Of a DNA stretch of 18,447 nt, positions 1 to 18,447 are shown piece after piece. The notes under the pieces were generated by a model that did not search any database, was not told the origin of the DNA, and saw only the letters and a program-made list of their open reading frames with translations. Location of the stretch: positions 1 to 18,447 of IMG/VR virus record IMGVR_UViG_2778261463_000012; one strand, 5' to 3'. Every line of letters starts with the position of its first letter. Positions within the stretch are counted from its first letter, which is position 1. Source of the DNA: a virus (taxonomy: Duplodnaviria > Heunggongvirae > Uroviricota > Caudoviricetes). Made by a program: the position numbers and the translations under genes.

Positions 1-20
1 CCATTTGATCATATGACAAG

Positions 21-587
21 ATGTGTATCCACCTTAACTTAATGATTTTTACCAAAATCATTAGGGGATTCATCAGTGCCGAGGCCGTACAGCGACTTAA
101 TGATGGTGAATATGATTATCCATGCTGGCACGGTTTAAGAATCATGCAATGTATTGCGGAAGCCGATGATGCCGGATTGCTGGGAAGATTTTCAGTCGAT
201 CTGAAGGTTGCCCAGTGGCGCTGGCTGTATGTGGCGACGTTTATCAGTGAAGAGGAAGACAAGAACGGTACCATTGATATCCCTAACGATAACGGAACTA
301 CAGATCGCGCAGTTATTTATAAGGGGAAGCATGGTTGCCTGAGTATATACCCAGGACCACTTCGCATTGCCCTGCAAAACCATGTCGAATGGGGATTTAT
401 TGAAAAATATGGCGAAGCTGAAGGCATGGGGCGAGTTCTGTTTCTCTATCAAAAAATGCTCATCGCAGATCCTGATAATGGTTTCATTGTCTCTGCTATG
501 GGACGAGAAGGGCTTGAACTCCTTCTGGATGAAATGACTCACGATCTGAATACTCATGGTATACCAGAAGCACCAGTGACACATTAA
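21..587 (+). CDS. hypothetical protein (188 aa)
   Basis: Complete ORF; in-frame TGA at 6-8 upstream so the gene lies within the window. First gene of a co-directional cluster. No motif I can assign. Confidence 0.4.
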   Translation: MCIHLNLMIFTKIIRGFISAEAVQRLNDGEYDYPCWHGLRIMQCIAEADDAGLLGRFSVDLKVAQWRWLYVATFISEEEDKNGTIDIPNDNGTTDRAVIYKGKHGCLSIYPGPLRIALQNHVEWGFIEKYGEAEGMGRVLFLYQKMLIADPDNGFIVSAMGREGLELLLDEMTHDLNTHGIPEAPVTH

Positions 588-596
588 ATATTACAT

Positions 597-875
597 ATGG
601 CAAATCAGAATAAAATTAATGTATTTCAGGTTGAATCAAAACATAAAACACCTGTGATAAAACACGTTCGCCGCCATACACGCATCTATACGCCAGAAGA
701 GTTTATAGCAATGCCAATGATAAAGAAGTTTATTCGTGATAATCCCGATCACATTGCTATAGATAAAAATAATGGAGAAATAATGTTATCACGCGAACTT
801 GCCGAAATTTACTGTAACGTGAATAACAGTAAAAAGTTGAAAAAGGCAATCAGAAAGATATCAGGAGGAGCATGA
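597..875 (+). CDS. hypothetical small basic protein (92 aa)
   Basis: ORF 10 nt after the preceding stop; its stop overlaps the next start (ATGA at 872-875), suggesting translational coupling. No recognisable motif. Confidence 0.4.
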   Translation: MANQNKINVFQVESKHKTPVIKHVRRHTRIYTPEEFIAMPMIKKFIRDNPDHIAIDKNNGEIMLSRELAEIYCNVNNSKKLKKAIRKISGGA

Positions 876-1060
876 ATATTTATTTCAGAATAGTTATATC
901 ACTGGCAATTATCGCATGCATTTACGGATTACTCGTCCCGTTTCTGATATCAATGAAGGATACGGTAGCGGTAATTTCTGGCTTTGCACTGGCGTTTCTG
1001 ACCCCGCCATGCATTTATGCCATTTATAAGGGGCTTTCTTTCACTAAGGATAAAAGATGA
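872..1060 (+). CDS. small membrane protein, two predicted TM helices (62 aa)
   Basis: AGGAGG at 863-868 precedes ATG 872. Two hydrophobic stretches (IVISLAIIACIYGLLVPFLI and VISGFALAFLTPPCIYAIY). Stop overlaps the start of the SPFH gene (ATGA at 1057-1060). Confidence 0.55.
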   Translation: MNIYFRIVISLAIIACIYGLLVPFLISMKDTVAVISGFALAFLTPPCIYAIYKGLSFTKDKR

Positions 1061-1884
1061 AAAAAATTATTTTTTCTTTAGCCATTGTTCTGCCTGCCAT
1101 TGGCCTTGTCGGTTGTGATCGTGTTGAGCCTGGTAATGTGGGCATCAAAGTCAACAAACTTGGCGACGATAAAGGCGTAGGTGAAGTGGTCGGTGTTGGT
1201 CGCTACTGGACAGGCTGGAACACTGAAGTTTATATCTTCCCGACCTTTAAGCAGATGAAGACCTACGATGATCCATTCAGTTTCCAGATGAGCGATGGAA
1301 CAACCATTGGTTACCACATCGGAGTAGCCTACAAGGTTGATCCATCCAAAGTTACCACGGTGTTTCAAACCTACCGCAAAGGTGTGGATGACATTACCGA
1401 CACCGACCTGCGCCAGAAGATAGCAGATGCACTAAATCGGCTGGCCAGCAAAATGACCACTGATAAATTTATCGACGGTGGTAAATCTGAACTACTGGAT
1501 TCAGCTCTAAAAGATATTCAGGCAGAAATGACGCCCATCGGTATTCAGGTAATGAGCCTGTCTTATGTAGGTAAGCCGGAATACCCGTCAACTGTTATTG
1601 ACAGCATTAACGCTAAAGTCACGGCAAATCAGAAAACTCTTCAACGTGAGCAGGAAGTAAAACAGCGCGAAGCGGAAGCCAACATGTTGCGCGCGGAAGC
1701 TGCCGGACAGGCTGATGCGATTCGCACAAAAGCCCAGGCCGAAGCCGATGCTATTCGTTTACGCGGCGAAGCTCTGCGCCAGAACCCCGGTGTTATGGAG
1801 CTGGAAGCCATCAATAAATGGAACGGCACACTGCCGCAATACATGACCAACGGTGCCAGTACACCATTTATCCAGGTTAAATAA
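1057..1884 (+). CDS. SPFH/band-7 (prohibitin/HflC-like) family lipoprotein
   Basis: N-terminal signal peptide with lipobox (LVGC); central SPFH-like region; Ala/Glu/Arg/Gln-rich coiled-coil C-terminal segment (REQEVKQREAEANMLRAEAAGQADAIRTKAQAEADAIRLRGEAL) typical of band-7 proteins. AAGGA at 1046-1050. Confidence 0.8.
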   Translation: MKKIIFSLAIVLPAIGLVGCDRVEPGNVGIKVNKLGDDKGVGEVVGVGRYWTGWNTEVYIFPTFKQMKTYDDPFSFQMSDGTTIGYHIGVAYKVDPSKVTTVFQTYRKGVDDITDTDLRQKIADALNRLASKMTTDKFIDGGKSELLDSALKDIQAEMTPIGIQVMSLSYVGKPEYPSTVIDSINAKVTANQKTLQREQEVKQREAEANMLRAEAAGQADAIRTKAQAEADAIRLRGEALRQNPGVMELEAINKWNGTLPQYMTNGASTPFIQVK

Positions 1885-1923
1885 CTTATATGCCCGGCAA
1901 GCCGCCGGGCTAAGGGAAAGCAG

Positions 1924-2283
1924 ATGAACACTCATAATACTCAACCGAAAATAATGAACTATGACCCGAATCTGACGTCGTGCGGACGCATGGCAAAACA
2001 AACCGTTCGATTAACTTTCGGACTATGGGAATACCGCGAAACATTCGAAGTCACTGTCGGTGGCAACCTGACCGGACTCGATGTTATCAGTTGCGCTATT
2101 GAAAGCCTGTACGCAACGCTGCCTTATGAAGAAGTCGAGGATGAGCGCGATATCATAGCCACCATTAATATCGGCGGACTGGAATGCAAGGATGAAGACC
2201 TGCAGGGAGAACTCTGGCTTGCCGAGATGCTTGTATCCGCAGAAATAATCAGCATTGAGCCTGACACAGGCATACAACTCTGA
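1924..2283 (+). CDS. hypothetical acidic protein (119 aa)
   Basis: ORF co-directional with the cluster; no recognisable motif. Confidence 0.4.
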   Translation: MNTHNTQPKIMNYDPNLTSCGRMAKQTVRLTFGLWEYRETFEVTVGGNLTGLDVISCAIESLYATLPYEEVEDERDIIATINIGGLECKDEDLQGELWLAEMLVSAEIISIEPDTGIQL

Positions 2284-2313
2284 AATTCCATAAATTCAGG
2301 GAGCAATAGAAAA

Positions 2314-2556
2314 ATGTTCGCTTTGATTAATCAGGGGCAGCTATACACCGACAGTTCCGGTTACCCAATAAAAATTATTCGCTGCATAAACAGCACTGTG
2401 TTGTACAGAAGAATGGATGGGTTAACACAGTCGGTAAAAATAAACGATTTTAATGAACTGTTTGAACGGATCGATCACCAGGAATACCGACAAATTCTGG
2501 CAGAAACAGAGCAGGAAGCTCATCTGAAAAAATTACGAGCCATGAAAAGGAAGTAA
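2314..2556 (+). CDS. hypothetical protein (80 aa)
   Basis: ORF co-directional with the cluster; no recognisable motif. Confidence 0.35.
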   Translation: MFALINQGQLYTDSSGYPIKIIRCINSTVLYRRMDGLTQSVKINDFNELFERIDHQEYRQILAETEQEAHLKKLRAMKRK

Positions 2557-2712
2557 AGAATGAATAAAGCATTTGAACGATGAGTGCGCCAGCGTTATGG
2601 CAATCGCTATGACCTGACGAGAGATCTCGAAGGCTACTACTGCCGTGAAGTAGTGAAACGAATGTTTGAGGTGTGGTGTCACTGCCGCGGATAAAAGTTT
2701 TGTGAGGTAACT

Positions 2713-2928
2713 ATGTCTCTCAACATTGACTGTGTACCTATTACGACATGGTGTCGTGATATGGGAGAAACTCTGGATGCCGTTAACAAACGGTTACAAC
2801 GTGGAGTATGGGAGGAAGGGGTTCAGGTTTTAAATGTGGAAGGCTCCAAAGAACGATGGATTGATTTAACTGAGGTTTCAAAATGGGCGAGAAAAAACAA
2901 ATATCCTTATCACTCCCAAGAGGAATAA
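2713..2928 (+). CDS. putative excisionase-like small DNA-binding protein (71 aa)
   Basis: Small ORF immediately upstream of, and overlapping by 46 nt, a tyrosine integrase gene (classic xis-int arrangement). GAGGT precedes ATG 2713. Assignment is by context and size only. Confidence 0.4.
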   Translation: MSLNIDCVPITTWCRDMGETLDAVNKRLQRGVWEEGVQVLNVEGSKERWIDLTEVSKWARKNKYPYHSQEE

Positions 2929-4055
2929 CAATTCGTCAATACAAGAATTGCTCTACATTAGTTGTGACCTTCACCTATAAAGGGGTTCTTTGCAGGGAAC
3001 CCTTATCAAGGCTGGAAGTTAACGCAAAGGGGATTAAGTATGCTGAACGACTGCTCGGAGAAATAAAAAACAAAATTAGTGATGGCTCATTCGATTTTTC
3101 AGAGTACTTTCCAAACTCCAAGAAGCTTATATTATTTGGAATGGTAAAGAGGAATAAAAGTGTGAAAGATTACCTAGATGAATATTTAGAAATTTGCAAA
3201 AACAGAAAGTTATCCCCTTCAACAATAAATGGATATGAAAAATGTGTATCTGCATTATCGGAACTACATAACTTACATGTTATTGACCTGACTCCAGCAA
3301 TTTTAAAGAAATGGATTTCAAGAAGAACAACAAAACTGAAGACCATCAGAAACAATTTATCATTTTTAAGAAGCGCAGTAGATGAGGCTGTCACTGACGG
3401 ACTTATAACAATAAACCCTGTAAAACTAGTTAGTGCAAGTAGATACCATGCTGTTAACCATACAACCAATTCTGCCGAATATGAAGTAGACCCCTTTACG
3501 CCAGCAGAAGCAGCCGCTATCTACAACGCCTGTATCTATGAGGAATGGCGAAACCTTTTTTGTTTCGCATTCAATACAGGCCTTCGAAGCTCAGAATTAT
3601 GTGCATTACGTTGGTCTGATATTGATTTTATTGGTCATACCGTTCATGTACAGGTTGCTTCTGTCGTTGGTGTGATAAAAGGAACAAAAACAAAAGCTGG
3701 TACAAGAAAAGTTGAATTAAACAGTGAAGCCCTAATGGCATTACAGTCACAGAAATCATTTACGATGATGAGAAGTGCTTTTGTATTCAGTGACCCAAAG
3801 ACACGCAAACCGTGGGCTAATTCAGCAGCGATTCGTAAGAAAGCCTGGATCCCGACTCTTAAAAAAGCTGGTGTTCGTTACCGTAATCCATATCAGACCA
3901 GACATACATTCGCTACACGACATATCAGCCAGGGGGCAAATTTATTCTGGCTTGCAGGCCAAATGGGGCACAAAGGACCCGAAATGCTTTTTAGACACTA
4001 TGGTTCATATTTATCAGAATATGATGGTAATACAGCAATCTCAGAAGTAATCTAG
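2883..4055 (+). CDS. tyrosine recombinase / integrase (390 aa), AT-rich
   Basis: C-terminal catalytic region with the conserved box II pattern (RHTFATRHISQGANLFWLAGQMGHKGPEMLFRHYGSY; HxxR and terminal Tyr). Transcribed toward the ssrA-like att core at 4189-4214. Confidence 0.85.
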   Translation: MGEKKQISLSLPRGITIRQYKNCSTLVVTFTYKGVLCREPLSRLEVNAKGIKYAERLLGEIKNKISDGSFDFSEYFPNSKKLILFGMVKRNKSVKDYLDEYLEICKNRKLSPSTINGYEKCVSALSELHNLHVIDLTPAILKKWISRRTTKLKTIRNNLSFLRSAVDEAVTDGLITINPVKLVSASRYHAVNHTTNSAEYEVDPFTPAEAAAIYNACIYEEWRNLFCFAFNTGLRSSELCALRWSDIDFIGHTVHVQVASVVGVIKGTKTKAGTRKVELNSEALMALQSQKSFTMMRSAFVFSDPKTRKPWANSAAIRKKAWIPTLKKAGVRYRNPYQTRHTFATRHISQGANLFWLAGQMGHKGPEMLFRHYGSYLSEYDGNTAISEVI

Positions 4056-4188
4056 TCGCTTAAATATTTCAAAATATGTACAAAGGTAGGACACAGAATA
4101 GACCTTAACTTACACCTGAAATACATAAAAATATACAGTGAAATATGAAATCATTTGTATTTCATATTGTTATGTAATTTGGGTGTTT

Positions 4189-4214
4189 GGGTTCAACTCC
4201 CGCCAGCTCCACCA
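4189..4214 (+). other. att core: 26-nt copy of the tmRNA (ssrA) 3' end (GGGTTCAACTCCCGCCAGCTCCACCA); not a full tmRNA gene
   Basis: Exact match to the 3'-terminal 26 nt of E. coli tmRNA as I recall it, ending in CCA. The sequence upstream (4060-4188) is AT-rich and unrelated to tmRNA, so this is an attachment-site duplicate. Confidence 0.7.
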
Positions 4215-4250
4215 CTTGCTCTTCCGGATACGTCCGGAGAAATCCTGAAA

Positions 4251-4283
4251 GCCCGCATGGCACAAGCTCTGCGGGCTTTTTTG
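4251..4283 (+). terminator. rho-independent terminator (ssrA-type) downstream of att core
   Basis: Stem GCCCGCA (4251-4257) / TGCGGGC (4271-4277) followed by TTTTTT (4278-4283). Confidence 0.6.
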
Positions 4284-4326
4284 TGTCTACTGTTGTCCGA
4301 GGATATCCAGCTAAATCCAGTGATTA

Positions 4327-4378
4327 TTGGTATACGTTTAGGTATACGGTAGGATGTATACCTAAACGCGTATACCAA
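4327..4378. promoter_or_regulatory. imperfect inverted repeat of GGTATACG-containing arms immediately upstream of int; candidate Int-binding/operator site
   Basis: Left arm TTGGTATACGTTTAGGTATACG (4327-4348) and right arm GTATACCTAAACGCGTATACCAA (4356-4378) are near-perfect reverse complements. A single copy of the arm recurs at 12578-12599 near the other end of the element. Confidence 0.4.
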
Positions 4379-4398
4379 TTCATGAAGGAGCGGCCAAA

Positions 4399-5598
4399 TT
4401 GGCAAGAACGACACGCCCCCTGACCAACACAGAAGTACTGCGCGCTAAAGCGTTAGAAAAGGATCTAACGTTGCATGATGGCGATGGTCTTTTTCTACTC
4501 GTTAAAACGAACGGTAAGAAGTTATGGCGTTTCCGTTATCAACGTCCGGCAACAAAGCAGCGGACAATGATGGGGCTAGGTACCTTCCCAGCTCTTTCAC
4601 TTGCTGACGCCCGACGGTTAAGAGCGGATTACCTTTCCTTGTTAGCCAACGGAATTGACCCGCAAATTCAAGCTGAAATTGCAGAGGAACAGCAGCAAAT
4701 CGCACAGGACAGTATTTTTACAACGGTCGCCGCTAACTGGTTCCAGCTTAAAAGCAAAAGCGTAACCCCTGATTACGCAAGAGACATTTGGCGCTCATTG
4801 GAGAAAGATGTATTCCCTGCCGTTGGTGAACTCCCAGTTCAGCAAATCAAAGCCCGAACGTTGGTTGAAGCGCTTGAGCCAGTCAAAGCTCGTGGGGCGC
4901 TAGAGACTGTACGTCGGCTAGTGCAACGCATTAACGAGATAATGATCTTTGCCGTAAATACAGGGCTGATCGATGCCAATCCAGCTTCCGGGGTTGGAAT
5001 GGCCTTTGAGAAGCCAAAAAAGCAAAACATGCCAACACTACGACCAGAAGAACTACCAAATCTAATGCGTTCTTTAGCCATGTCTAATTTATCTGTATCG
5101 ACTCGCTGCCTTATCGAATGGCAGCTTCTAACACTTGTACGCCCTTCTGAAGCCTCTGGTACTCAATGGGCAGAGATCGATCTTGAGAATAAACTCTGGA
5201 CGATCCCTGCAGGACGAATGAAAGCCAAGCGAGAACATATTGTTCCTCTGTCGGTTCGAGCATTAGATATTTTAGAGATAATGAAGCCTATTAGTGCACA
5301 TCGTGAATATGTTTTCCCAAGTAGAAATAATCCTAAGCAACCAATGAATAGTCAGACAGCTAATGCTGCATTAAAAAGAATTGGTTATGGAGGAAAGCTT
5401 GTTGCACATGGTTTGCGTTCTATAGCCAGTACAGCTATGAATGAGGAAGGTTTTAATCCCGATGTTATTGAAGCAGCATTAGCGCATAGCGATAAAAATG
5501 AAGTCCGTAAAGCATATAATCGTTCGACTTACCTTTATCAACGAATTGATTTAATGAATTGGTGGGCTAACTTCGTGTTTAAAAAAACACACGAATAG
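4399..5598 (+). CDS. int: P4-type tyrosine integrase (399 aa, TTG start)
   Basis: AAGGAG at 4385-4390 then TTG 4399. N-terminus MARTTRPLTNTEVLRAKA...DGDGLFLLV and C-terminal HGLRSIASTAMNEEGF...ALAHSDKNEVRKAYNRSTY match the P4/CP4-57 integrase architecture. Sits directly downstream of the ssrA 3'-end att core. Confidence 0.9.
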   Translation: MARTTRPLTNTEVLRAKALEKDLTLHDGDGLFLLVKTNGKKLWRFRYQRPATKQRTMMGLGTFPALSLADARRLRADYLSLLANGIDPQIQAEIAEEQQQIAQDSIFTTVAANWFQLKSKSVTPDYARDIWRSLEKDVFPAVGELPVQQIKARTLVEALEPVKARGALETVRRLVQRINEIMIFAVNTGLIDANPASGVGMAFEKPKKQNMPTLRPEELPNLMRSLAMSNLSVSTRCLIEWQLLTLVRPSEASGTQWAEIDLENKLWTIPAGRMKAKREHIVPLSVRALDILEIMKPISAHREYVFPSRNNPKQPMNSQTANAALKRIGYGGKLVAHGLRSIASTAMNEEGFNPDVIEAALAHSDKNEVRKAYNRSTYLYQRIDLMNWWANFVFKKTHE

Positions 5599-5611
5599 CC
5601 CACATAAAATA

Positions 5612-5634
5612 AGAGGCTGCTCAATGCAGCCATT
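5612..5634. terminator. probable bidirectional terminator between convergent int and cargo operon
   Basis: Hairpin GGCTGC (5615-5620) / GCAGCC (5626-5631), flanked by A-rich sequence upstream and T-rich downstream on the + strand. Confidence 0.4.
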
Positions 5635-6379
5635 ATTTCAATGAATTAATATACGTATTTAATCCTGTTGATTTTATAACTCCCATCACTTCTGGTGATT
5701 TTTTCAAATAAACAACATTAGGCCATGACAGATAAGCAATAATAATACATATTAGTCGAACCATTGCAAAATCAGACAGATTAATGAGAGTTTCAATATA
5801 CATATGTTTATCTTGCTCATCGAAACCATTTTCAGTTATAACTTCATTATCAACAAGTTTAACTGCAAGATAAAACCTTCTTGCAAATGAAAACATCTTA
5901 TCATCAGATTTATCATCTAATGATTCAATTATTTTAATCAAAGCATCTTCAGCAATACCTCTTTGAATACTGGTTTTAATCAGTTGCTCAAGTTTATTTA
6001 CAGCATTAACCTTTTTAACTTCAAAATCACCACTTGGAGATGGAAAAATCAAAGAGAAATCATCAAAAGCACTTTTTTGCGCGTTAATTAAATTATAAAA
6101 TTGAAATTCAAATGACTTCCTTTTATCAAGAAACTCCTGTCTTTTAGTCTCATTAATTAAACATTCATTCGCAGTTAATTGCATTTTAACTGATTTAATT
6201 AGAAGTAATATTGAAATGAAACTCAATATAGGATTAAGAACACCTCCAAAATAATCACCAAACTGTCCCCATATCTCTTTGTTTTCAGAAAGAGTGGTTG
6301 AGCTTCCACCAAATTGATAATAGTATAATCCAAAGACTACTAATATCAAAATAGATGTAACCCAACCTATATACCTCAT
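5633..6379 (-). CDS. membrane-anchored protein of unknown function (248 aa); downstream gene of the two-gene cargo operon
   Basis: Two N-terminal hydrophobic helices (IGWVTSILILVVFGLYYY and VLNPILSFISILLLIKSV) flank a Gly/aromatic-rich motif (WGQFGDYFGG); charged, probably helical C-terminal domain. Start overlaps the stop of the upstream gene (ATGA). GAGGTGG RBS. AT-rich. Confidence 0.65.
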   Translation of the reverse strand: MRYIGWVTSILILVVFGLYYYQFGGSSTTLSENKEIWGQFGDYFGGVLNPILSFISILLLIKSVKMQLTANECLINETKRQEFLDKRKSFEFQFYNLINAQKSAFDDFSLIFPSPSGDFEVKKVNAVNKLEQLIKTSIQRGIAEDALIKIIESLDDKSDDKMFSFARRFYLAVKLVDNEVITENGFDEQDKHMYIETLINLSDFAMVRLICIIIAYLSWPNVVYLKKSPEVMGVIKSTGLNTYINSLK

Positions 6380-7197
6380 ACCCCATCCACCTCAATAATT
6401 AAGTATTTCACTACCTCACCATTACTGATGGTTAAATCTCTAACTTTTAATAACAAATACTCTCGCTCTTCTTCTGCCAGTCTATTGTTAGCATCTAGAT
6501 TACTCGTTATTTTCTTGGTCTGGGCATCAGTAACGTATTTTAGACCATTCAAAAAACCAAAAGAAGTCGTTTTTTCTTCCCCCCTGACTAACAGTCTACC
6601 ATTTCCAGTAAAAGTATTAAACCTAGTAACTATAGCTTCTATCTGATGATCATGATTAGTTTCAATTAGCTCAGTTATATTCAAAGCGGTATTTTTGTTT
6701 AAAGTAATTATCTTTTGCTTCTCACCCGGCTTTCTATAATTCAAATCAACTGAATAGTTGCACATGGTGGAAATTTTATGCATATTTTTAAGTCTATTTC
6801 GAATAGCTTTAGTCAACTCATCTTCAATATCGTCTAATCCGGAAACCACTTTTTTTGCAGCGTCACTCAATGCCGGACCTTCTAAAAAAAGAGACTCATA
6901 AATATAATAACTCATAACTTCTGCAAATACAGTGCGAGTCATACTTGAAAGACGCGCTGCAACTTTTCTATCTGATATAACAACATCAAATCGCTGACCA
7001 AAAGAGCCTGTAAAAGAATGCTTAAGGTTTGTTCTTATTTCATTAGATTGATGTCTGTTTTCTTTAACTTTACCTCGAAGTATTGCCTCTGTAATAATAC
7101 TGGTAACTCCAGATGCACCCAATAGTGTCTGGAGAGCATAATCCATATCTATTTCATCGTCGCCGCTATTGATAACCAAATCAAGACTAACTTTCAT
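6376..7197 (-). CDS. protein of unknown function (about 273 aa); upstream gene of the two-gene cargo operon
   Basis: ORF track gives 6376-7245, but GGGGAAA precedes the ATG at 7197 (MKVSLDLV...), which I prefer as the start. Soluble; no Walker or other catalytic motif I can assign. AT-rich, unlike the P4 backbone. Confidence 0.6.
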   Translation of the reverse strand: MKVSLDLVINSGDDEIDMDYALQTLLGASGVTSIITEAILRGKVKENRHQSNEIRTNLKHSFTGSFGQRFDVVISDRKVAARLSSMTRTVFAEVMSYYIYESLFLEGPALSDAAKKVVSGLDDIEDELTKAIRNRLKNMHKISTMCNYSVDLNYRKPGEKQKIITLNKNTALNITELIETNHDHQIEAIVTRFNTFTGNGRLLVRGEEKTTSFGFLNGLKYVTDAQTKKITSNLDANNRLAEEEREYLLLKVRDLTISNGEVVKYLIIEVDGV

Positions 7198-7333
7198 TAT
7201 TTCCCCACGAATTGATAAAAATCTGCTCAATGAATAAAAGTCCATATTTTTATACAGTAATCAAACTTCCAATGTCTAAAATATGCAAACACATTAAACT
7301 AAATTTATGATAGTGATCAACATATTGCGCGCA

Positions 7334-7352
7334 GTGCTTTCCCCGCCTCGCC
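7334..7352 (-). other. P2/P4-type cos site (19-nt cohesive-end sequence)
   Basis: + strand reads GTGCTTTCCCCGCCTCGCC, the reverse complement of the P2/P4 cohesive end GGCGAGGCGGGGAAAGCAC as I recall it. Located just beyond the 3' end of psu, as in P4. Confidence 0.65.
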
Positions 7353-7455
7353 CGCCCGCTTTGTGGGGCGGTTTTAATGCAGTTGTACTGACACGCTCAG
7401 ACTGCGCCGGGAATGGCGCGGTCTGCAGAAAATGAGGCAGGGAAACGCATGCAAA

Positions 7456-7486
7456 GCCATGCACCTTATCGATGCATGGCTTTTTT
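7456..7486 (+). terminator. rho-independent terminator-like hairpin between cos and psu
   Basis: Stem GCCATGCA (7456-7463) / TGCATGGC (7473-7480), loop of 9 nt, then TTTTTT (7481-7486). The reverse strand has only a short T-run. Confidence 0.45.
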
Positions 7487-7516
7487 CAGTAAAAACGGGC
7501 GGATTTTCGGGGAATT

Positions 7517-8089
7517 TTACACAGACTGACGTGATGCCAGTTGCGCACTTTTACGCGAAAAAATCATGTTCTGCGCAGGGGTGAATTTTTCACGGCTGTC
7601 ATCCACCGAAGCCGCGTCAGGCCTGAATCCGATGGTCGTTAAAATGTCGCTATCCTGTGCGGAATAATTAATTTTTTCCCCCTTCGCAAGCCAGGACAGA
7701 AGGGCTTCACGCAGGGCATCTGTGGCACGCTGTATGGCACAGTTTCGGGCAATGGCCGTCAGCTCACTGTAGCCCATCAGCTCCGGTGCCAGTGCGGCCG
7801 CCAGTGCTGTGCCGTGCTGCTGCATAAAATCATTCAGCCGGTCGCGGATGCTGATGTGCTGAACGGCTTCATGCGAACGAATATAACGACCGGCAGCCTG
7901 ATTCACCTGCCATTTTCTGACTTCGATAATATTGCGTAATTCGTCCAGGCGACTGACGTTTCTGCCTTCCCCGGACAGAAGCCGCAGATATTCCTGTTCG
8001 GCCGCAGCCAGCTCATTTTTGCGTTGCAGCCATGCTGCTTTGTTATTCTGACAGGTGTCAAAGGCCTGCTGTAAGGCTGTGCTTTCCAT
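7517..8089 (-). CDS. psu: Psu, polarity suppression / capsid decoration protein (190 aa)
   Basis: 190-aa protein (MESTALQQAFDTCQNNKAAWLQRKNELAAAEQEY...) of P4 Psu length and sequence character, in the conserved position after delta in the sid-delta-psu block and adjacent to cos. Confidence 0.85.
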   Translation of the reverse strand: MESTALQQAFDTCQNNKAAWLQRKNELAAAEQEYLRLLSGEGRNVSRLDELRNIIEVRKWQVNQAAGRYIRSHEAVQHISIRDRLNDFMQQHGTALAAALAPELMGYSELTAIARNCAIQRATDALREALLSWLAKGEKINYSAQDSDILTTIGFRPDAASVDDSREKFTPAQNMIFSRKSAQLASRQSV

Positions 8090-8162
8090 CGTTATCTCTT
8101 TCTCATCATGCTGAAGAATAAAAATACGGTGTGCGGCGACGGCCGGTGTTAACCGGCAGCCC

Positions 8163-8663
8163 TCATTCCAGACGCAGCGAATATGATTGTGTTTTTAAGC
8201 GTACTGGCGGCAGTTCCTGTTTTTCATGCAGGCTTTCTGCCAGTTCGTCCGGCGTGACCGGGCGGACAATAAAACGGTTGATGGTCTGAAGCGTTTTAAA
8301 CACCAGACCACATCCCGGATCCGTGCACACATAAAAACGCTCGGTGACTTCCTGAGACAGACGCCGCGATGTTCTTGACAGTGCAAGGCCTTTACATCTC
8401 CGACAACAATATCCGGTAACAAGCATTCTTTTCGGGCGTTTCATACTGCCGGAGGCTGACGTCAGTGAATCGCGGTATCTCTGTTTGCCTGAAATGTATT
8501 CCATTCCTGAATCTTTACTGTCAGAGAAAAAGCTTTCACTCGCTTCAAATGTCGCAGAGCAATAAATATTCCGGCACTGTGCAATCATTATCTTGGTGCC
8601 ATCGTCCATGAAATGTGCGCGGCGGGTGTGAGCAACATGTCCACACGACGGGCAGTAAATCAT
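8163..8663 (-). CDS. delta: Delta, Ogr/Delta-family zinc-finger late transcriptional activator (166 aa from MIYCPSCGH)
   Basis: Ogr-like zinc-finger motifs (CPSCGH...QCRNIYCSATF, and a second CCRRC...CTDPGCG half), consistent with the duplicated-Ogr architecture of P4 Delta. The ORF track starts at 8720; I prefer the internal ATG at 8661-8663, giving 166 aa. Confidence 0.8.
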   Translation of the reverse strand: MIYCPSCGHVAHTRRAHFMDDGTKIMIAQCRNIYCSATFEASESFFSDSKDSGMEYISGKQRYRDSLTSASGSMKRPKRMLVTGYCCRRCKGLALSRTSRRLSQEVTERFYVCTDPGCGLVFKTLQTINRFIVRPVTPDELAESLHEKQELPPVRLKTQSYSLRLE

Positions 8664-8956
8664 GACAGCAGTCCTCTGGCCTTCAGCTCTGCTCCCTGCT
8701 GGTCTATTTTGTCCTGCCACACCTTGCGCTGTGCCGGTGTGCCTGCCACCTCATAATCCATGTGCGGGAGTGTTGCCGCTGACAGTCCGGCCAGCCGGAG
8801 AACCGGCTCGCCGCTGAGGCTGATTTGTATCTGTTTAATTTTCTGTTCCAGCGATGATTTCACCTGCTGCATGACAGCCTTTTCCGGTGCGACGTAGCCC
8901 TGATGGCCGGTGGTGTTGGCGAGCGGATTTTCCTGTACCAGAATGCTCAGATGCAT
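8660..8956 (-). pseudogene. sid: sid-like ORF, probably 5'-truncated (98 aa from its only ATG; frame open without a start up to a stop at 9116-9118)
   Basis: Occupies the position of sid directly upstream of and overlapping delta. My translation of the upstream frame finds no ATG/GTG/TTG before the stop at 9116-9118, so at most about 152 codons remain, against 244 aa for P4 Sid. Identity rests on position, not motif. Confidence 0.4.
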
Positions 8957-9489
8957 TGCCCGGACAAGCGCCTCACAGGTTTCATTCAGGGCGTGTTCCA
9001 GCTCATGCTCTGCATACAGACTCAGCAGGTGATGATGTGCCTTCCGGTATCCTTGTGCGTATCCTCGCTGACGGGCGCACCACAGACATCCCGCTGGGGC
9101 GTTTTCTGCGGGAATTTACCTGTGACCGTCCTGACCTGTTCAAACGCAGCCCCGTAAACCGGCATGCGGTACTGAAAGAAATGGCCGGAGACCCGGAATT
9201 ACAGAAATGGCGGGAGAAATATCTGGATATTTACCCGCAGGAGCCTGTTCCGGTCAGCCGGGAAGCACCGGTGGCGCGGGAATGGCGGGAAATTCCCCGC
9301 ACGGAGCCTGACCCGGAAATCACACCGGATAACAGTTACCGCAATTATCTGTAATTAAAAAACGACACCCGAAAAATTAAATGTGCGTATTCGCGCAGGG
9401 ATACGCACGTCTTCAGGAGACGCAGATATGCCTTATCAGTTAATGCAACCGGCACGGAATTCAGTCATCTGTCACAGGGAGGAAAGCAA

Positions 9490-9810
9490 ATGAAAACACC
9501 CTTACCGCCCGTCTTACGCGCTGCCCTTTACCGTCGCGCTGTCGCCTGTGCCTGGCTGACCGTGTGCGAACGTCAGCACCGCTACCCGCATCTCACCCTT
9601 GAGTCACTGGAGGCGGCCATCGCCGCTGAGCTGGAAGGCTTTTATCTGCGCCAGCACGGTGAGGAAAAAGGGCGTCAGATAGCCTGTGCCCTGCTGGAAG
9701 ATTTAATGGAATCCGGCCCCCTGAAGGCCGCGCCGTCGCTGTCCTTTCTCGGGCTGGTTGTGATGGATGAACTCTGTGCCCGTCACATAAAAGCGCCGGT
9801 ACTGCACTGA
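9490..9810 (+). CDS. small conserved protein upstream of alpha (106 aa)
   Basis: GGAGG at 9479-9483 precedes ATG 9490. GC-rich codon usage like the P4 backbone; ends 15 nt before the alpha start. In P4 a small ORF occupies the equivalent position; exact identity not verified. Confidence 0.55.
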
Positions 9811-9824
9811 AGGAGAACAACACC

Positions 9825-12158
9825 ATGAAAATGAACGTAACCGCCACCGTCAGCCATGCGCTCGGCCACTGGCCGCGTATTCTCCCGGCGCTGGGGATTC
9901 AGGTGCTGAAGAACCGTCATCAGCCCTGTCCGGTCTGTGGCGGGAGTGACCGCTTCCGTTTTGATGACAGGGAGGGGCGCGGCACCTGGTACTGCAATCA
10001 GTGTGGTGCCGGTGACGGCCTGAAACTGGTTGAAAAGGTGTTTGGTGTCTCCCCGTCCGACGCGGCCGCAAAAGTGGCTGCCGTGACCGGCAGCCTGCCC
10101 CCGGCTGACCCGGCAGTGACGGCTGCCGCCGGTGCTGAAACAGACGCTGCCCGGAAGAACGCAGCCGCACTGGCACAAACCCTGATGGCGAAAACCTGTC
10201 CCGGAACCGGTAACGCCTACCTGACCCGCAAGGGCTTTCCCGGCCGGGAATGCCGGATGCTGACCGGCACACACAGAGCCGGTGGCGTGAGCTGGCGCGC
10301 CGGTGACCTTGTGGTGCCACTGTATGACGACAGCGGCGAACTGGTTAACCTTCAGTTAATCAGTGCTGACGGCCGTAAGCGCACTCTGAAAGGCGGACAG
10401 GTCAGGGGCACCTGTCACACCTTTGAAGGACAGAATCAGGCCGGAAAACGTCTGTGGATAGCGGAGGGATACGCGACCGCACTTACCGTGCATCACCTGA
10501 CCGGTGAAACGGTGATGGTGGCGCTTTCTTCCGTGAACCTCCTTTCTCTGGCCAGCCTTGCCCGGCAGAAGTATCCGGCCTGTCAGATTGTCCTTGCCGC
10601 AGACCGTGACCTCAGCGGTGACGGCCAGACAAAAGCCGCCGCAGCCGCAGATGCGTGTGAGGGCGTTGTTGCCCTGCCGCCGGTCTTCGGTGACTGGAAT
10701 GATGCCTTCACGCAGTACGGCGGGGAGGCCACCCGTAAGGCCATTTACGATGCCATCCGGCCACCGGCTGAAAGCCCGTTCGACACCATGAGCGAAGCGG
10801 AGTTTTCCGCCATGAGTACCAGCGAAAAGGCCATGCGTATCTATGAGCATTACGGCGAGGCGCTCGCGGTCGATGCCAACGGCCAGCTTCTGTCCCGCTA
10901 TGAAAATGGTGTCTGGAAGGTGCTGCCGCCACAGGACTTTGCCCGGGATGTGGCCGGGCTGTTTCAGCGTCTGCGCGCGCCGTTCTCCTCCGGGAAGGTG
11001 GCCTCCGTGGTGGACACCCTGAAGCTGATTATTCCGCAGCAGGAAGCCCCCTCCCGCCGCCTGATTGGCTTTCGTAACGGCGTGCTCGACACGCAGAACG
11101 GCACGTTCCACCCGCACAGTCCGTCACACTGGATGCGCACCCTGTGCGATGTGGATTTCACCCCGCCGGTGGACGGTGAAACGCTGGAGACCCACGCCCC
11201 CGCGTTCTGGCGCTGGCTTGACCGTGCCGCCGGTGGCCGTGCGGAAAAACGCGACGTGATTCTGGCCGCACTGTTTATGGTGCTGGCGAACCGCTACGAC
11301 TGGCAGCTCTTTCTGGAGGTGACCGGTCCCGGCGGCAGCGGCAAAAGTATCATGGCCGAAATAGCCACCCTGCTGGCCGGGGAGGATAACGCCACGTCGG
11401 CCACCATCGAGACGCTGGAATCCCCGCGTGAACGTGCCGCGTTAACTGGCTTCTCACTGATACGCCTGCCGGACCAGGAAAAATGGAGCGGCGACGGTGC
11501 CGGACTCAAGGCCATCACCGGCGGCGATGCGGTGTCCGTGGACCCGAAATACCGGGATGCGTACTCCACGCATATCCCGGCGGTGATTCTGGCCGTGAAC
11601 AATAACCCGATGCGCTTCACCGACCGCAGCGGCGGCGTGTCACGCCGGCGGGTGATTATTCACTTCCCGGAACAGATAGCCCCGCAGGAGCGCGACCCGC
11701 AGCTTAAGGACAAAATCACCCGCGAGCTGGCGGTCATCGTGCGTCACCTGATGCAGAAGTTCAGCGACCCGATGCTCGCCCGGTCACTGCTTCAGTCCCA
11801 GCAGAACTCAGACGAGGCACTGAACATCAAACGGGATGCCGACCCGACGTTTGATTTTATCGGCTATCTGGAAACCCTGCCGCAGACCAGCGGCATGTAT
11901 ATGGGGAACGCCAGTATCATCCCGCGCAATTACCGTAAATACCTCTATCACGCCTATCTGGCCTACATGGAGGCAAACGGCTACCGGAATGTACTCAGCC
12001 TGAAAATGTTCGGGCTGGGGCTGCCGGTGATGCTGAAGGAATACGGACTGAATTACGAGAAGCGCCATACCAAACAGGGGATACAGACCAACCTGACGCT
12101 GAAAGAGGAAAGCTACGGCGACTGGCTGCCAAAATGTGACGACCCTGCAACAACCTGA
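9825..12158 (+). CDS. alpha: P4 alpha-type primase-helicase (777 aa)
   Basis: N-terminal zinc-binding motif (CPVCGGSDRFRF...WYCNQCGAGDG), a TOPRIM-like primase region (LWIAEGYATALT...VLAADRDLSGDGQ) and a Walker A box (TGPGGSGKS) of a C-terminal helicase domain. Length equals that of P4 alpha; followed by terminator and crr repeats. Confidence 0.9.
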   Translation: MKMNVTATVSHALGHWPRILPALGIQVLKNRHQPCPVCGGSDRFRFDDREGRGTWYCNQCGAGDGLKLVEKVFGVSPSDAAAKVAAVTGSLPPADPAVTAAAGAETDAARKNAAALAQTLMAKTCPGTGNAYLTRKGFPGRECRMLTGTHRAGGVSWRAGDLVVPLYDDSGELVNLQLISADGRKRTLKGGQVRGTCHTFEGQNQAGKRLWIAEGYATALTVHHLTGETVMVALSSVNLLSLASLARQKYPACQIVLAADRDLSGDGQTKAAAAADACEGVVALPPVFGDWNDAFTQYGGEATRKAIYDAIRPPAESPFDTMSEAEFSAMSTSEKAMRIYEHYGEALAVDANGQLLSRYENGVWKVLPPQDFARDVAGLFQRLRAPFSSGKVASVVDTLKLIIPQQEAPSRRLIGFRNGVLDTQNGTFHPHSPSHWMRTLCDVDFTPPVDGETLETHAPAFWRWLDRAAGGRAEKRDVILAALFMVLANRYDWQLFLEVTGPGGSGKSIMAEIATLLAGEDNATSATIETLESPRERAALTGFSLIRLPDQEKWSGDGAGLKAITGGDAVSVDPKYRDAYSTHIPAVILAVNNNPMRFTDRSGGVSRRRVIIHFPEQIAPQERDPQLKDKITRELAVIVRHLMQKFSDPMLARSLLQSQQNSDEALNIKRDADPTFDFIGYLETLPQTSGMYMGNASIIPRNYRKYLYHAYLAYMEANGYRNVLSLKMFGLGLPVMLKEYGLNYEKRHTKQGIQTNLTLKEESYGDWLPKCDDPATT

Positions 12159-12174
12159 CCATCATGACTCATCT

Positions 12175-12199
12175 GACCGGCATCTGCCGGTCTTTTTTT
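12175..12199 (+). terminator. rho-independent terminator of alpha
   Basis: Stem GACCGG (12175-12180) / CCGGTC (12187-12192) followed by TTTTTTT (12193-12199). Confidence 0.6.
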
Positions 12200-12216
12200 A
12201 TCCCTGAATTCCCCGA

Positions 12217-12515
12217 AGGTGAACAATCCACTGTTCACCCTTCACCGTATATTCACCCGTTATCACACTGAAATTAAAAGAGAAAAACGAAAGGTGAACA
12301 GTGTGAACAATCAAATCAAAAAAAACTTTTTTTCTCCCTGTGTGATTTCAGTACGGGGGATTAATCACCGGTATGAGTCACACCGGCAGAATGCCGGAGG
12401 TGAAGAATCGAATGTTCACCCTTCACCCATTATTCACCACCTATCACTCTGAAATAAAAGGAGAAAATCAAAGAGTGAACAGTGTGAACAGTTCTTTCGA
12501 AAAAAAATTTTTTTC
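12217..12515. repeat. crr-like region: two direct repeats of about 120 bp about 60 bp apart, carrying TGTTCACC/GGTGAACA iterons
   Basis: Unit 1 about 12217-12335 and unit 2 about 12398-12515 align almost base for base (e.g. ATGTTCACCCTTCACC... and ...GTGAACAGTGTGAACA... followed by A-run/T-run). This matches the P4 crr organisation and the alpha-binding octamer TGTTCACC. Confidence 0.7.
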
Positions 12516-12577
12516 CTGTACGATATAGCATCAATCCAAGTAAAAATGCGCTTTCATTTCACATTAACTTACAGCCA

Positions 12578-12599
12578 TTGGTATACGATTAGGTATACG
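12578..12599. promoter_or_regulatory. single copy of the GGTATACG-containing arm repeat (candidate Int arm-type site) near the right end of the P4-like element
   Basis: TTGGTATACGATTAGGTATACG differs by one base from the left arm at 4327-4348. Confidence 0.35.
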
Positions 12600-12652
12600 C
12601 ACAAAAACTGAATTAAACAAAATCGTTAAAAATCAAAGCGATACAATATTTA

Positions 12653-12674
12653 TTCAAACTCCGCCAGCCCACCA
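12653..12674 (+). other. degenerate second copy of the tmRNA 3'-end att core (TTCAAACTCCGCCAGCCCACCA)
   Basis: Related to 4192-4214 with a few substitutions/indels, ending in CCA, followed by the same type of terminator and by a second P4-type integrase gene. Confidence 0.55.
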
Positions 12675-12710
12675 ATTTTTGATATATTGAAGTTCAGTGA
12701 AGTCTATCAA

Positions 12711-12742
12711 GCCCGCATGGAACCAGCCTTGCGGGCTTTTTT
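12711..12742 (+). terminator. rho-independent terminator (ssrA-type) after second att core
   Basis: Stem GCCCGCA (12711-12717) / TGCGGGC (12730-12736) followed by TTTTTT (12737-12742); near-identical to the stem at 4251-4277. Confidence 0.55.
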
Positions 12743-12840
12743 ACGTCTATAGTAGTCTACCGAGAATTGCTAGAATCTACTCGTTATGGCACCCTTTTTG
12801 GGACCCAACACAAAGGGTCCAAAACATGAGGGTCCCAAAC

Positions 12841-14070
12841 ATGGCAAAAATCGCTAAGAAGCTCACTGACACTGAAATCAAAAGCACCAAACCTGCCGAG
12901 AAAGAGGTTAACCTTTTTGACGGCGATGGTTTGCTCCTGCGAATCGCCCCCTTAGCGAAGGGAGGAAAGAAAAATTGGTATTTCAGATATGCAGTGCCTG
13001 TGACCAAAAAGCGAACTAAGGTGAGCTTAGGAACCTATCCTCACCTTACACTTGCGAAGGCACGAGCTTTACGTGATGAGTACTTGTCGTTGCTTGCAAA
13101 TGGTATAGACCCACAAGTTCATAACACCCACAAAGCCAATGCCCTTAAGGATGCAACGGAACATACATTTCAAGCAGTAGCCAAGAAGTGGCTTGATGAG
13201 AAAGTCAAAACGTCAGGCATCTCCCAGGATCATGCTAACGACATCTGGCGAAGCCTAGAGAGAAATATCTTTCCAACGTTGGGTGATACCCCCATTAAGG
13301 AGATTCGCCCTAAAATGCTTAAACAGCATTTAGACCCCATAGAAAAACGAGGTGTCCTTGAAACACTTCGCCGCGTCATATCCCGCCTGAATGAAATTTT
13401 CCGCTATGCAGCAACAGAAGAACTCATAGAATTCAATCCGGCTGACAACCTGGGGCAACGGTTCAGCAAGCCAAAAAAACAGAATATGCCAGCATTACCC
13501 CCTTCCGAACTCCCCCGCTTCCTGGTTGCTCTAAACAATGCTTCTATCCGTTTAGAAACAAGGCTACTGATTGAGTGGCAACTTCTCACATGGGTTCGCC
13601 CTGGTGAAGCTGTTCGCACAAGATGGTCAGATATTGATATAGAAACCAGCATGTGGAACATCCCGGCGGAGTTTATGAAAATGAAGAAGCCTCACAAAGT
13701 TCCACTGAGCAAAGAATCTTTGCGAGTCTTGGATTCAATGAAAGCCATCAGCGGGCATAGAGAGTGGGTTTTTCCCAGTATCAAAGCTCCACTCAATCAC
13801 ATGCATGAACAAACAGCTAATGCGGCTATAATCCGTATGGGCTTCGGAGGTGAGCTTGTAGCTCATGGTATGCGATCAATCGCTAGAACGGCGGCTGAGG
13901 AGTGTGGCAAGTTTAGAACTGATGTCTTAGAAGCCGCCCTTGCCCACTCGAAAAAAGATGAAATAATTGCAGCCTACAATCGTGCAGAGTATCTCACAGA
14001 ACGTGTGGTTCTCATGCAATGGTGGAGTGACTATGTTTCGTCTCAAAAATACAAAGTTATTGCCGCATAA
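12841..14070 (+). CDS. int: P4-type tyrosine integrase, second copy (409 aa from MAKIAKKL)
   Basis: The ORF is open from 12697, but the N-terminus MAKIAKKLTDTEIKSTKPAEKEVNLFDGDGLLLRI aligns with the start of the integrase at 4399, and GAGGG precedes ATG 12841. C-terminal catalytic region HGMRSIARTAAEE...ALAHSKKDEIIAAYNRAEY. Paralog of the 4399-5598 integrase, clearly diverged. Confidence 0.85.
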   Translation: MAKIAKKLTDTEIKSTKPAEKEVNLFDGDGLLLRIAPLAKGGKKNWYFRYAVPVTKKRTKVSLGTYPHLTLAKARALRDEYLSLLANGIDPQVHNTHKANALKDATEHTFQAVAKKWLDEKVKTSGISQDHANDIWRSLERNIFPTLGDTPIKEIRPKMLKQHLDPIEKRGVLETLRRVISRLNEIFRYAATEELIEFNPADNLGQRFSKPKKQNMPALPPSELPRFLVALNNASIRLETRLLIEWQLLTWVRPGEAVRTRWSDIDIETSMWNIPAEFMKMKKPHKVPLSKESLRVLDSMKAISGHREWVFPSIKAPLNHMHEQTANAAIIRMGFGGELVAHGMRSIARTAAEECGKFRTDVLEAALAHSKKDEIIAAYNRAEYLTERVVLMQWWSDYVSSQKYKVIAA

Positions 14071-14352
14071 CTCTTCCATGATGGGTTAACTATCTTGATT
14101 TATTTGAAGAATTAATGATCACACCATTAACCTATGTGGACTAAGCATAGCCATTTACAAATGGGTACCTTGAGGCCACATAACGAAAGCTGTCGGTCAT
14201 ATCAGCTAAATAATTCACATCTCTTCTCGATTATCATACACCTCGAAGAACTACCAAATTCGCTCTAATCAATGATAAAACAGTTGAATTCGGTTAAAAT
14301 TTGATCAATTTTATCCTCTACATTGTATTGAATCATCCATGAGGTTTTGTGC

Positions 14353-17688: not shown

Positions 17689-18241
17689 TCATGGTTTTAT
17701 ATAGCCTAAATAAACCAAGAAGTATACTTACACAACGACCTTCACGCCGAAGAAGCTGTCAGATACGCCAGCAACCAAAGCATTGCGTTTAAGAGTCAGT
17801 CATTGATACGAAGGGATAACTGCGTATCAGCAGCCGGACATTGAGTCGAATAAAGGCTGGTAGAGAGGGACAGTTCTGTGTCACCGGGAGATTAGTCAGA
17901 AACATCAGCGGCAGAACAGATGAACCAGCAATTGGTAGTGTACAGAAAACTCTCCAGTATATAATTATTCAACTTAACACTAAAAAAATCACATAGTTAA
18001 TATCATAATTTTTCTTTGGTCTACTTATGCGAGAGATATTGTGGCTTCAACCTGGTATTAGGAGTCGTTTCAGATAAAAGATGTTCTTCGATTCGACTGG
18101 ACTTGGTAATAGCAATAAGTAATCGTGAATATTGAAGGACGAAAGGCTACTTCAAAACAAAGTAACCTTTCCAATATTCCCATATATGGGACAAGTGGCA
18201 CATTAACTGCACATAGTGCAGGATACATATGACATAAAACT

Positions 18242-18447
18242 TAGACTGGCCCCCTGAATCTCCAGACAACCAATATCACTTAAATAAGTGATAGTCTTAA
18301 TACTAGTTTTTAGACTAGTCATTGGAGAACAGATGATTGATGTCTTAGGGCCGGAGAAACGCAGACGGCGTACCACACAGGAAAAGATCGCAATTGTTCA
18401 GCAGAGCTTTGAACCGGGGATGACGGTCTCCCTCGTTGCCCGGCAAC
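18242..18447 (+). mobile_element. IS2 (IS3 family) left end, truncated by the window edge
   Basis: Terminal sequence TAGACTGGCCCCCTGAATCTCCAGACAACCAATATCACTTAAATAAGTGATAGTC matches the IS2 left inverted repeat region as I recall it, followed by the start of the IS2 OrfA gene. Confidence 0.8.
18333..18447 (+). CDS. insC: IS2 transposase OrfA (InsC), N-terminal 38 codons; partial
   Basis: Translation [38 protein letters not shown] matches the IS2 OrfA N-terminus. GGAGAA precedes ATG 18333. Confidence 0.8.

Follow-up and report, generated by a model that had tools for sequence, protein, structure and literature searches.

The DNA considered here is a stretch of 18,447 nucleotides (nt) from a virus of the class Caudoviricetes (IMG/VR record IMGVR_UViG_2778261463_000012, positions 1 to 18,447), which we refer to as the window. 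According to an original prediction, four consecutive genes between positions 21 and 1884 form one translationally coupled module. Our analysis leads to a smaller unit: the gene for a 62-residue protein with two transmembrane (TM) segments and the gene for a 275-residue SPFH lipoprotein constitute a discrete, translationally coupled two-gene cassette, and the two upstream open reading frames (ORFs), A and B, are interchangeable neighbours and not members of the unit. The pair is an ordinary representative of a known, functionally uncharacterised phage family (PHROG 1130/200; gp19/gp20 of phage N4). The relevant features are as follows:

21–587, + strand: ORF A, 188 amino acids, a chimera, part of which belongs to PHROG 1515
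597–875, + strand: ORF B, 92 amino acids, an AT-rich ORFan
872–1060, + strand: gene for the 2-TM protein, 62 amino acids, PHROG 1130
1057–1884, + strand: gene for the SPFH lipoprotein, 275 amino acids, PHROG 200 and Pfam Band_7
1892–1910, + strand: hairpin with a GC-rich stem (GCCCGGC-AAGCC-GCCGGGC), located 8 nt past the SPFH stop codon and lacking a U-tract

All four reading frames are present and co-directional, just as originally described, and both of the proposed ATGA overlaps can be read in the sequence, at 872–875 between ORF B and the 2-TM gene and at 1057–1060 between the 2-TM gene and the SPFH gene. Shine-Dalgarno sequences are available for the 2-TM gene (AGGAGGAG at 863–870) as well as for the SPFH gene (TAAGGA at 1045–1050). 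The spacer that separates ORF A from ORF B had been given as 10 nt, but comprises 9 nt (588–596); this junction contains neither an overlap nor a Shine-Dalgarno sequence for ORF B.

The 2-TM and SPFH genes are consistently linked. In 88 loci from close relatives, the 2-TM gene always starts 185 nt upstream of the SPFH start codon, hence the 4-nt overlap. When a hidden Markov model of the 62-residue family was applied to a broader set of loci, the SPFH gene proved to be immediately preceded, in 169 of 172 phage loci, by a 2-TM ORF bearing the loop motif of this family (P-x-L-[IV]-S-x-x-D-[ST]-x-x-V-x-x-G-F, aligned as G..VP.L[IV]S..D[ST]..V..GF), and the same model recovered it in seven out of eight bacterial loci (Dyella, Saprospirales, Pseudomonas), all eight of which stem from a genome scan with a four-sequence alignment that under-samples the bacterial distribution. 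A tblastn search with the SPFH protein retrieved 413 phage records, and the virulent groups represented include N4-like, rV5-like, FelixO1-like, T7-like, jumbo, phiCbK-like, crAss-like and Lak phages as well as Bruynoghevirus. An ORF of 54–102 residues abuts or overlaps the SPFH start in P88 (P2-like), a P1 variant, Fraca, Moo19, N4, KpS8, ProddE, cr85_1, ORM_20 and phi1026b, and the small partners from sources as different as T7-like ProddE, crAss-like cr85_1 and the Burkholderia phage phi1026b align with the two TM segments and the loop motif. In rV5-like KpS8, a 54-residue soluble ORF has been inserted and separates the 2-TM gene from the SPFH gene.

The cassette also has discrete borders. 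In P18-100, a Klebsiella phage, the insertion point of the pair is exactly between a gene for a 140-residue protein and the ORF A homolog, such that the latter lies downstream of the pair, and DNA similarity between the window and Klebsiella phages is bounded at 872–1910, i.e., it extends from the start codon of the 2-TM gene to the hairpin past the SPFH stop. A stable hairpin 7–10 nt after the SPFH stop codon is nearly universal across cassette lineages; the type present here combines a conserved stem with a variable loop. Different stems followed by a U-tract, and hence true terminators, are found in N4-like and FelixO1-like versions and in some versions from prophages, while in P1-like contexts a transfer RNA gene follows the SPFH gene instead of a hairpin. 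The hairpin at 1892–1910 was not called in a scan for terminator consensus sequences. It is the 3′ boundary of a mobile two-gene cassette. With regard to a moron, which would be flanked by a promoter and a terminator of its own, the cassette has discrete insertion boundaries, no predicted sigma-70-like promoter upstream, and a conserved hairpin that lacks a U-tract in the window but is replaced by a true terminator in other lineages.

Does the unit extend further upstream? The four genes are indeed co-directional and tightly packed, their order recurs in 7 of the 88 SPFH loci, all from the same prophage lineage, and the ORF A homolog adjoins the pair on its other side in the Klebsiella phage. 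Nevertheless, a single coupled stress, membrane-integrity or defence module made up of all four genes is scarcely credible. ORF B accompanies the SPFH gene in no more than the 7 loci just mentioned and is missing from the remaining 81 and from phiP27. A homolog of ORF A is present in about 55 of the 88 loci, and all of these are phiP27-like. Conversely, homologs of ORF A (about 50% identity) reside in prophages devoid of any Band_7 gene in ten out of ten sampled cases from Citrobacter and E. coli, where they directly follow the gene for the 140-residue protein. In Citrobacter S-77, the order is 193-residue protein gene, 92-residue protein gene and DUF5406, and the 2-TM/SPFH pair is missing. 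The pair in turn occurs without ORF A or ORF B in P88, P1, Fraca, N4 and many others. ORF A itself is disrupted by IS10 in the window (see below), its junction with ORF B has no sign of coupling, as stated above, and a scan of six window proteins against PADLOC-DB 2.0 returned zero families at E ≤ 0.1. Linkage across distant phages, which the four-gene proposal implied for all members, thus holds for the 2-TM/SPFH pair and fails for the 188- and the 92-residue proteins.

The family of the 92-residue protein is small: among 5.8 billion proteins, it comprises no more than 12 clusters, whose members stem from E. coli, Citrobacter and Pantoea. Its gene has a GC content of 31–34% versus 44–55% in neighbouring genes of the operon, and the ratio of nonsynonymous to synonymous substitution rates (dN/dS) is 0.23. 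Judging from these substitutions, it is probably a real gene under purifying selection; within this prophage lineage, it occurs as a sporadic insert that lies outside the SPFH unit. The protein yielded no Pfam or PDB profile match. An ORF6N/Rha-like DNA-binding domain that had been suspected on the basis of the string IMLSRELAEIY was dismissed after Pfam searches with 11 family members and a PDB profile search all came back empty.

The small partner in the cassette, earlier described simply as a 2-TM protein, stood up well to closer inspection, as it has two hydrophobic segments (residues 7–23 and 32–48) and is conserved across phages. It matches PHROG 1130 (4.8e-24), a Pfam scan gave no family at E ≤ 0.1, and its family comprises 38 clusters among 1.84 billion representatives. 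A hairpin topology with both termini in the cytoplasm and the conserved loop in the periplasm is predicted because of the positive-inside rule: the N-terminus carries few charges, the C-terminus is rich in lysine and arginine, and the loop is near-neutral.

For the larger partner, profile search, fold and lipobox agree with the SPFH/band-7 lipoprotein that had been proposed. The match to Pfam Band_7 (PF01145) reaches 106.1 bits versus a gathering threshold of 23.6 (E 2.9e-30, profile positions 2–176 of 176), and that to PHROG 200 has an E-value of 1.5e-112. The protein starts with a signal peptide, MKKIIFSLAIVLPAIGLVGC20, whose lipobox LVGC20 fits the pattern [LVI][ASTVI][GAS]C. The lipobox cysteine is invariant in ten diverse homologs and in all 175 loci. 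Temperate enterobacterial versions, including the protein from the window, have aspartate at position +2, a residue that acts as an inner-membrane retention signal in E. coli. Lipid modification and retention in the inner membrane are accordingly predictions for this protein, read from its N-terminal residues. In an AlphaFold2 model, the SPFH domain starts three residues after Cys20 and spans residues ~20–175 as an alpha/beta fold (strands in 20–94, then helices); it is followed by a single helix of about 65 residues (178–242). Across ten very diverse homologs, conservation extends to the lipobox cysteine, an FPT..Q motif, YR, KW.G.LP and a terminal PF; the C-terminal tail motif can be written as K-W-x-G-x-L-P ... 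P-F. The dN/dS value for the SPFH gene, calculated versus two relatives, is only about 0.02 (versus about 0.2 for flanking genes), and from these rates the SPFH protein is under very strong purifying selection. Its synonymous divergence from the relatives (dS 0.44–0.53) is higher than that of its neighbours (0.1–0.26 for 81–587, 597–875 and 2314–2556), which suggests that the genes in this operon have mosaic histories.

The closest known counterpart is found in coliphage N4. There, gp20 and the window SPFH protein are 64% identical along the entire chain (4e-132), the loop motif of the 62-residue protein recurs in the membrane protein gp19 (32% identity over 38 residues, 2e-5), and the gene order is the same, with an overlap of 8 nt between gp19 and gp20 versus 4 nt in the window. 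The N4-like phage Moo19 carries the same pair. The settings differ: N4 is virulent and harbours the pair among its middle genes, whereas the window pair is part of a temperate early-left operon and lies downstream of IS10. Residue +2 also differs, being tyrosine in the N4-like and aspartate in the window protein. The genes directly upstream of the pair in N4 (gp18) and Moo19 (gp29) are annotated as "superinfection exclusion, similar to P22 gp17", a label that derives purely from annotation.

Among proteins of known structure, HflK and HflC are the best matches. A Foldseek search placed the E. coli HflK/HflC cage around FtsH first (PDB 7vhq, 2.5e-14, probability 1.00; also 7wi3 and 9cz2), with SPFH domain and long helix aligned over about 280 columns. 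Further relatives are prohibitin, erlin, stomatin, flotillin and QmcA, again with a probability of 1.00, as well as vault; they cover most of the chain (about 260–290 columns). HflK and HflC are also the best sequence match in the PDB, at about 17% identity. It is reasonable to ask whether the phage lipoprotein acts as an FtsH modulator that mimics or competes with HflK/HflC and shifts the access of substrates to FtsH, be they regulators of the lambda CII/CIII type or membrane proteins, thereby biasing the lysis-lysogeny decision or protecting phage proteins. The idea of FtsH modulation has been raised in a paper on Burkholderia phages (PMC10269572). Among proteins of solved structure, those of the FtsH-HflKC complex are nearest in sequence as well as in fold, the predicted topology is HflK/C-like with the membrane-proximal SPFH domain in the periplasm, and the lambdoid pair sits in a pL operon, which in lambda carries cIII. 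We nonetheless consider this role rather unlikely. In an NCBIfam scan, which gave nothing useful for the other proteins, the SPFH protein produced only sub-threshold scores with the HflK and HflC equivalogs TIGR01933 and TIGR01932 (23.0 and 23.8 bits versus cut-offs of 159.4 and 134.4), and prohibitin, erlin and stomatin match almost equally well. The protein has a lipid anchor in place of the N-terminal TM helix typical of HflK, and it is encoded by a single SPFH gene, not by a K/C pair forming a heteromer. Furthermore, the pair is common in virulent phages (N4-like, rV5-like, T7-like, crAss-like), in which there is no lysogeny decision to be biased.

A second comparison concerns the SPFH-NfeD pairs of E. 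coli (QmcA-YbbJ and YqiK-YqiJ; PDB 8z5g), in which an SPFH gene is likewise co-transcribed with a gene for a small membrane protein. The 62-residue partner lacks an NfeD-type oligonucleotide/oligosaccharide-binding (OB) fold domain and is too short to accommodate one. In addition, QmcA faces the cytoplasm, whereas the SPFH protein from the window is exported.

From the observed homology, fold, lipobox, pairing, strong selection and early-operon position we infer an oligomer, a topology, a site of contact and a physiological role. The SPFH protein would be exported, lipidated at Cys20 and held on the periplasmic face of the inner membrane by virtue of Asp +2. Going by its fold only, it may oligomerise via the long helix to form a ring or cage resembling those of HflK/C or prohibitin. 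The hairpin protein would then reside in the enclosed membrane patch with its conserved periplasmic loop contacting the SPFH protein. The pair would be made early in infection (it is of the middle class in N4) and would alter the inner membrane of the infected cell, and our best guess for the outcome is gatekeeping or protection of this membrane, which would either keep out superinfecting DNA or shield the cell from damage to its envelope. We give about an even chance to this proposal as a whole, i.e., to a periplasm-facing, lipid-anchored SPFH ring or cage that, together with its hairpin partner, gatekeeps or protects the inner membrane. T4 Imm and Sp, P22 SieA and HK97 gp15 are small inner-membrane exclusion proteins of phages that act on the cell envelope, and they offer a functional analogy for our best guess; they share neither sequence nor fold with the pair and have no SPFH domain. 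The "Lpp" exclusion lipoproteins of the mEpimmI type were also considered as relatives and discarded, as they are small Cor-like proteins encoded in the structural cluster and are not SPFH proteins.

Several points weigh against this proposal. The SPFH gene occurs without a recognisable motif-bearing partner in FelixO1-like MM7, in Bruynoghevirus Ab22 and in Caulobacter phage RBC57. Position +2 is occupied by tyrosine in N4-like versions and by serine, glutamate or asparagine in others, and retention in the inner membrane may therefore not hold for the family as a whole. The C-terminal 30 residues of the AlphaFold2 model are of low confidence. The sequence in front of the pair yielded no predicted sigma-70 promoter, so that expression of the pair in this lysogen is uncertain. 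A role in exclusion or protection is a guess made by analogy with other early phage membrane proteins; the literature on phage and prophage SPFH proteins, on exclusion and on N4 gp19/gp20 contained no experiment or paper assigning a function, and that on phage SPFH proteins and N4 gp19/gp20 yielded only remarks in genome annotations and a study on the Pasteurella protein PM0222. As recently as 2026, the reason for the presence of SPFH genes in phages was called unclear (PMC13239085). As to the exceptional loci, MM7 and Ab22 have non-homologous small ORFs upstream of the SPFH gene, RBC57 encodes a 116-residue protein with four TM segments instead, and the partner may have been replaced in these lineages.

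A more daring version of the proposal would have the pair serve as a widespread, hitherto unrecognised device that phages ranging from N4 to lambdoid, P2-like, T7-like and crAss-like ones assemble on the outer face of the inner membrane early in infection. It would either stop the DNA of later arrivals from entering, as a new class of superinfection exclusion across phage families, or capture the FtsH/HflKC quality-control machinery of the host, and in the window the outward promoter of IS10 would have turned it into a constitutive prophage trait; we regard this as doubtful. The locus itself is an ordinary prophage arm damaged by an insertion sequence, and is of modest interest here; there is more in it for the family. 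Temperate as well as virulent phages from widely differing families and hosts share a compact two-gene unit under unusually strong purifying selection, and we found no published function for it. SPFH cages (HflK/C, prohibitin, erlin, stomatin, flotillin) attract a great deal of attention in structural biology at present, and a lipid-anchored phage SPFH protein with a partner of 60 residues would make a small model that is amenable to genetics, since gp19/gp20 of N4 can be deleted in E. coli. Should the pair control DNA entry or FtsH, it would represent a new mechanism in phage-phage competition or host takeover.

A membrane protein gene that overlaps with a lipoprotein gene is also the signature of spanins, and this raises the question of a role in lysis, either as a spanin-like pair or as a holin- or pinholin-like hairpin restrained by an SPFH cage. 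The size of the hairpin protein and its 2-TM layout are reminiscent of pinholins, and N4 is known for delayed lysis. The genomic position, however, makes such a function very improbable: in every phage examined, the pair is located among early or middle genes for regulation, replication and recombination, and never in lysis or structural clusters. Moreover, the lipoprotein is a 275-residue SPFH protein with an inner-membrane signal and not a short outer-membrane o-spanin, and the hairpin protein has no periplasmic coiled-coil domain.

A role in lysogenic conversion deserves separate consideration, with the SPFH protein acting as a prophage-expressed surface or vesicle factor that benefits the bacterium in animals. 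Such a role has been reported for PM0222, an HflK/C-like SPFH protein encoded on a Pasteurella lambda-like prophage, which activates Toll-like receptors 1/2 (TLR1/2), is present in vesicles and whose deletion attenuates virulence (PMC9872710). The SPFH gene is carried by Shiga toxin (Stx)-converting phages and many prophages of pathogenic E. coli, and the outward promoter of IS10 could drive constitutive transcription in the window. PM0222 resembles the window protein in being a prophage-encoded SPFH protein, and its reported role concerns the animal host and not phage biology. Any orthology of the two proteins is putative, and activation of TLR2 is a generic trait of triacylated lipoproteins. 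Asp +2 predicts retention in the inner membrane rather than exposure on the surface, the pair sits in a repressed early operon and has no promoter of its own, and family members are frequent in virulent phages that infect environmental bacteria. The presence of the pair in strictly virulent phages argues against any module that purely benefits the lysogen, and lysogenic conversion is improbable in our view.

The left edge of the window is of immediate relevance for ORF A and for the expression of the cassette:

1–76, − strand: outside end of IS10/ISVsa5, 76 of 76 nt identical to IS10 copies
77–85: TGCCGAGGC, probably the 9-bp target of the IS10 insertion, within the phrog_1515 gene; the insertion sequence ends at 76, and from there homology to the uninterrupted gene resumes

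Thousands of copies of a sequence with 100% identity to positions 1–76 are found in the chromosomes and plasmids of E. coli. In one annotated copy, the matching segment is the end of a 1.3-kb element interrupting a tail-fibre gene, and the gene for the IS4-like ISVsa5 (IS10-type) transposase starts 32 nt further in and points away. The transposase gene of the IS10 element in the window is thus located further to the left, oriented away from the window. On the + strand, positions 1–31 match the 3′ half of the antisense RNA-OUT (Rfam model positions 40–70 of 70, E 0.001), with a score below the gathering value because the element is cut off at the start of the window. Given this orientation of RNA-OUT, the outward promoter pOUT of IS10 reads into the prophage genes. 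The stretch at 77–85 is probably the IS10 target, a call that builds on the 9-bp size and the consensus of IS10 targets; the second copy would fall outside the window.

ORF A had been regarded as a hypothetical gene. It is a chimera truncated by IS10, a circumstance that was initially overlooked. Since nt 1–76 are IS10 sequence, the ATG at 21 and the first 19 or so codons are derived from the element, and the native part starts from about nt 78. This remainder corresponds to the 3′ 168 codons of the gene for a 193-residue prophage early protein of PHROG 1515 (ORF A residues 20–188 match profile positions 36–203). In E. coli 06-00048, the uninterrupted homolog has 193 residues, of which the N-terminal ~25 are different, and an alignment of the two proteins revealed that ORF A is devoid of these ~25 native residues. 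An AlphaFold2 model of a full-length homolog (predicted local distance difference test score of 89) shows that residues 9–22, which are lost in the window, form three beta-strands; a search with this model found no fold relatives. ORF A is therefore a disrupted gene, i.e., an IS10-truncated pseudogene.

The insertion also parts the 2-TM/SPFH pair from the early promoter of the prophage. A promoter scan predicted no sigma-70-like promoter between 77 and 872, nor did it detect a candidate promoter for the pair in the P1 variant. As a consequence of the separation by IS10 and the lack of a predicted promoter at 77–872, any expression of the pair in the window would depend on IS10 and may arise through read-through from pOUT past RNA-OUT. 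Read-through from pOUT is documented in the older literature.

To the right, the cassette is followed by the remainder of the prophage arm, all four genes of which were assigned by Pfam and PHROG matches:

1924–2283, + strand: DUF5406
2314–2556, + strand: DUF4222
2713–2928, + strand: excisionase gene xis
2883–4055, + strand: tyrosine integrase gene int of the prophage, which ends shortly after

Region 21–4055 matches the distal early-left (pL-type) operon of phiP27-like lambdoid prophages and Stx phages, with the order phrog_1515, (92-residue protein gene), 2-TM, SPFH, DUF5406, DUF4222, xis and int. This gene order, followed by xis and int, is shared with phiP27 and with 23 E. coli genomes, among them E. 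coli 06-00048. The horizontally acquired block upstream of an integrase, which formed part of the original prediction, is hence a prophage early-left operon in front of xis and int. In the relatives, the repressor/pL region is situated about 2 kb upstream; in the window, this place is taken by IS10 and the window end.

Beyond the prophage int, an AT-rich junction leads to a P4-like element. The junction features a terminator-like hairpin at 4264–4278 and, at 4158–4282, a weak Rfam match to the small RNA IsrM (28.6 bits versus a gathering score of 376, E 2.8e-5). Genes for transfer-messenger RNA or transfer RNAs were not found in the window; relatives have ssrA annotated under the matching region. 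The 18 kb contain three integrases in total, namely the prophage int, a P4-like integrase at 4399–5598 and a third tyrosine integrase at 12697–14070. Genes for psu, ogr/delta and an alpha-type primase-helicase identify the segment after the P4-like integrase as a P4-like satellite, and downstream of the third integrase come a serine recombinase gene and two genes of the ParB/RepB-like type. The whole region from 4189 to 17688 is a tandem array of mobile elements. Between the P4-like integrase and psu, on the − strand at 5633–7245, lie two overlapping ORFs of 289 and 248 codons without a Pfam match, and their sole match is a weak, partial one to PADLOC PDC-S25 (1.2e-5). The interval between integrase and psu is a hotspot for defence genes in P4-like elements, and the two ORFs may represent uncharacterised defence cargo.

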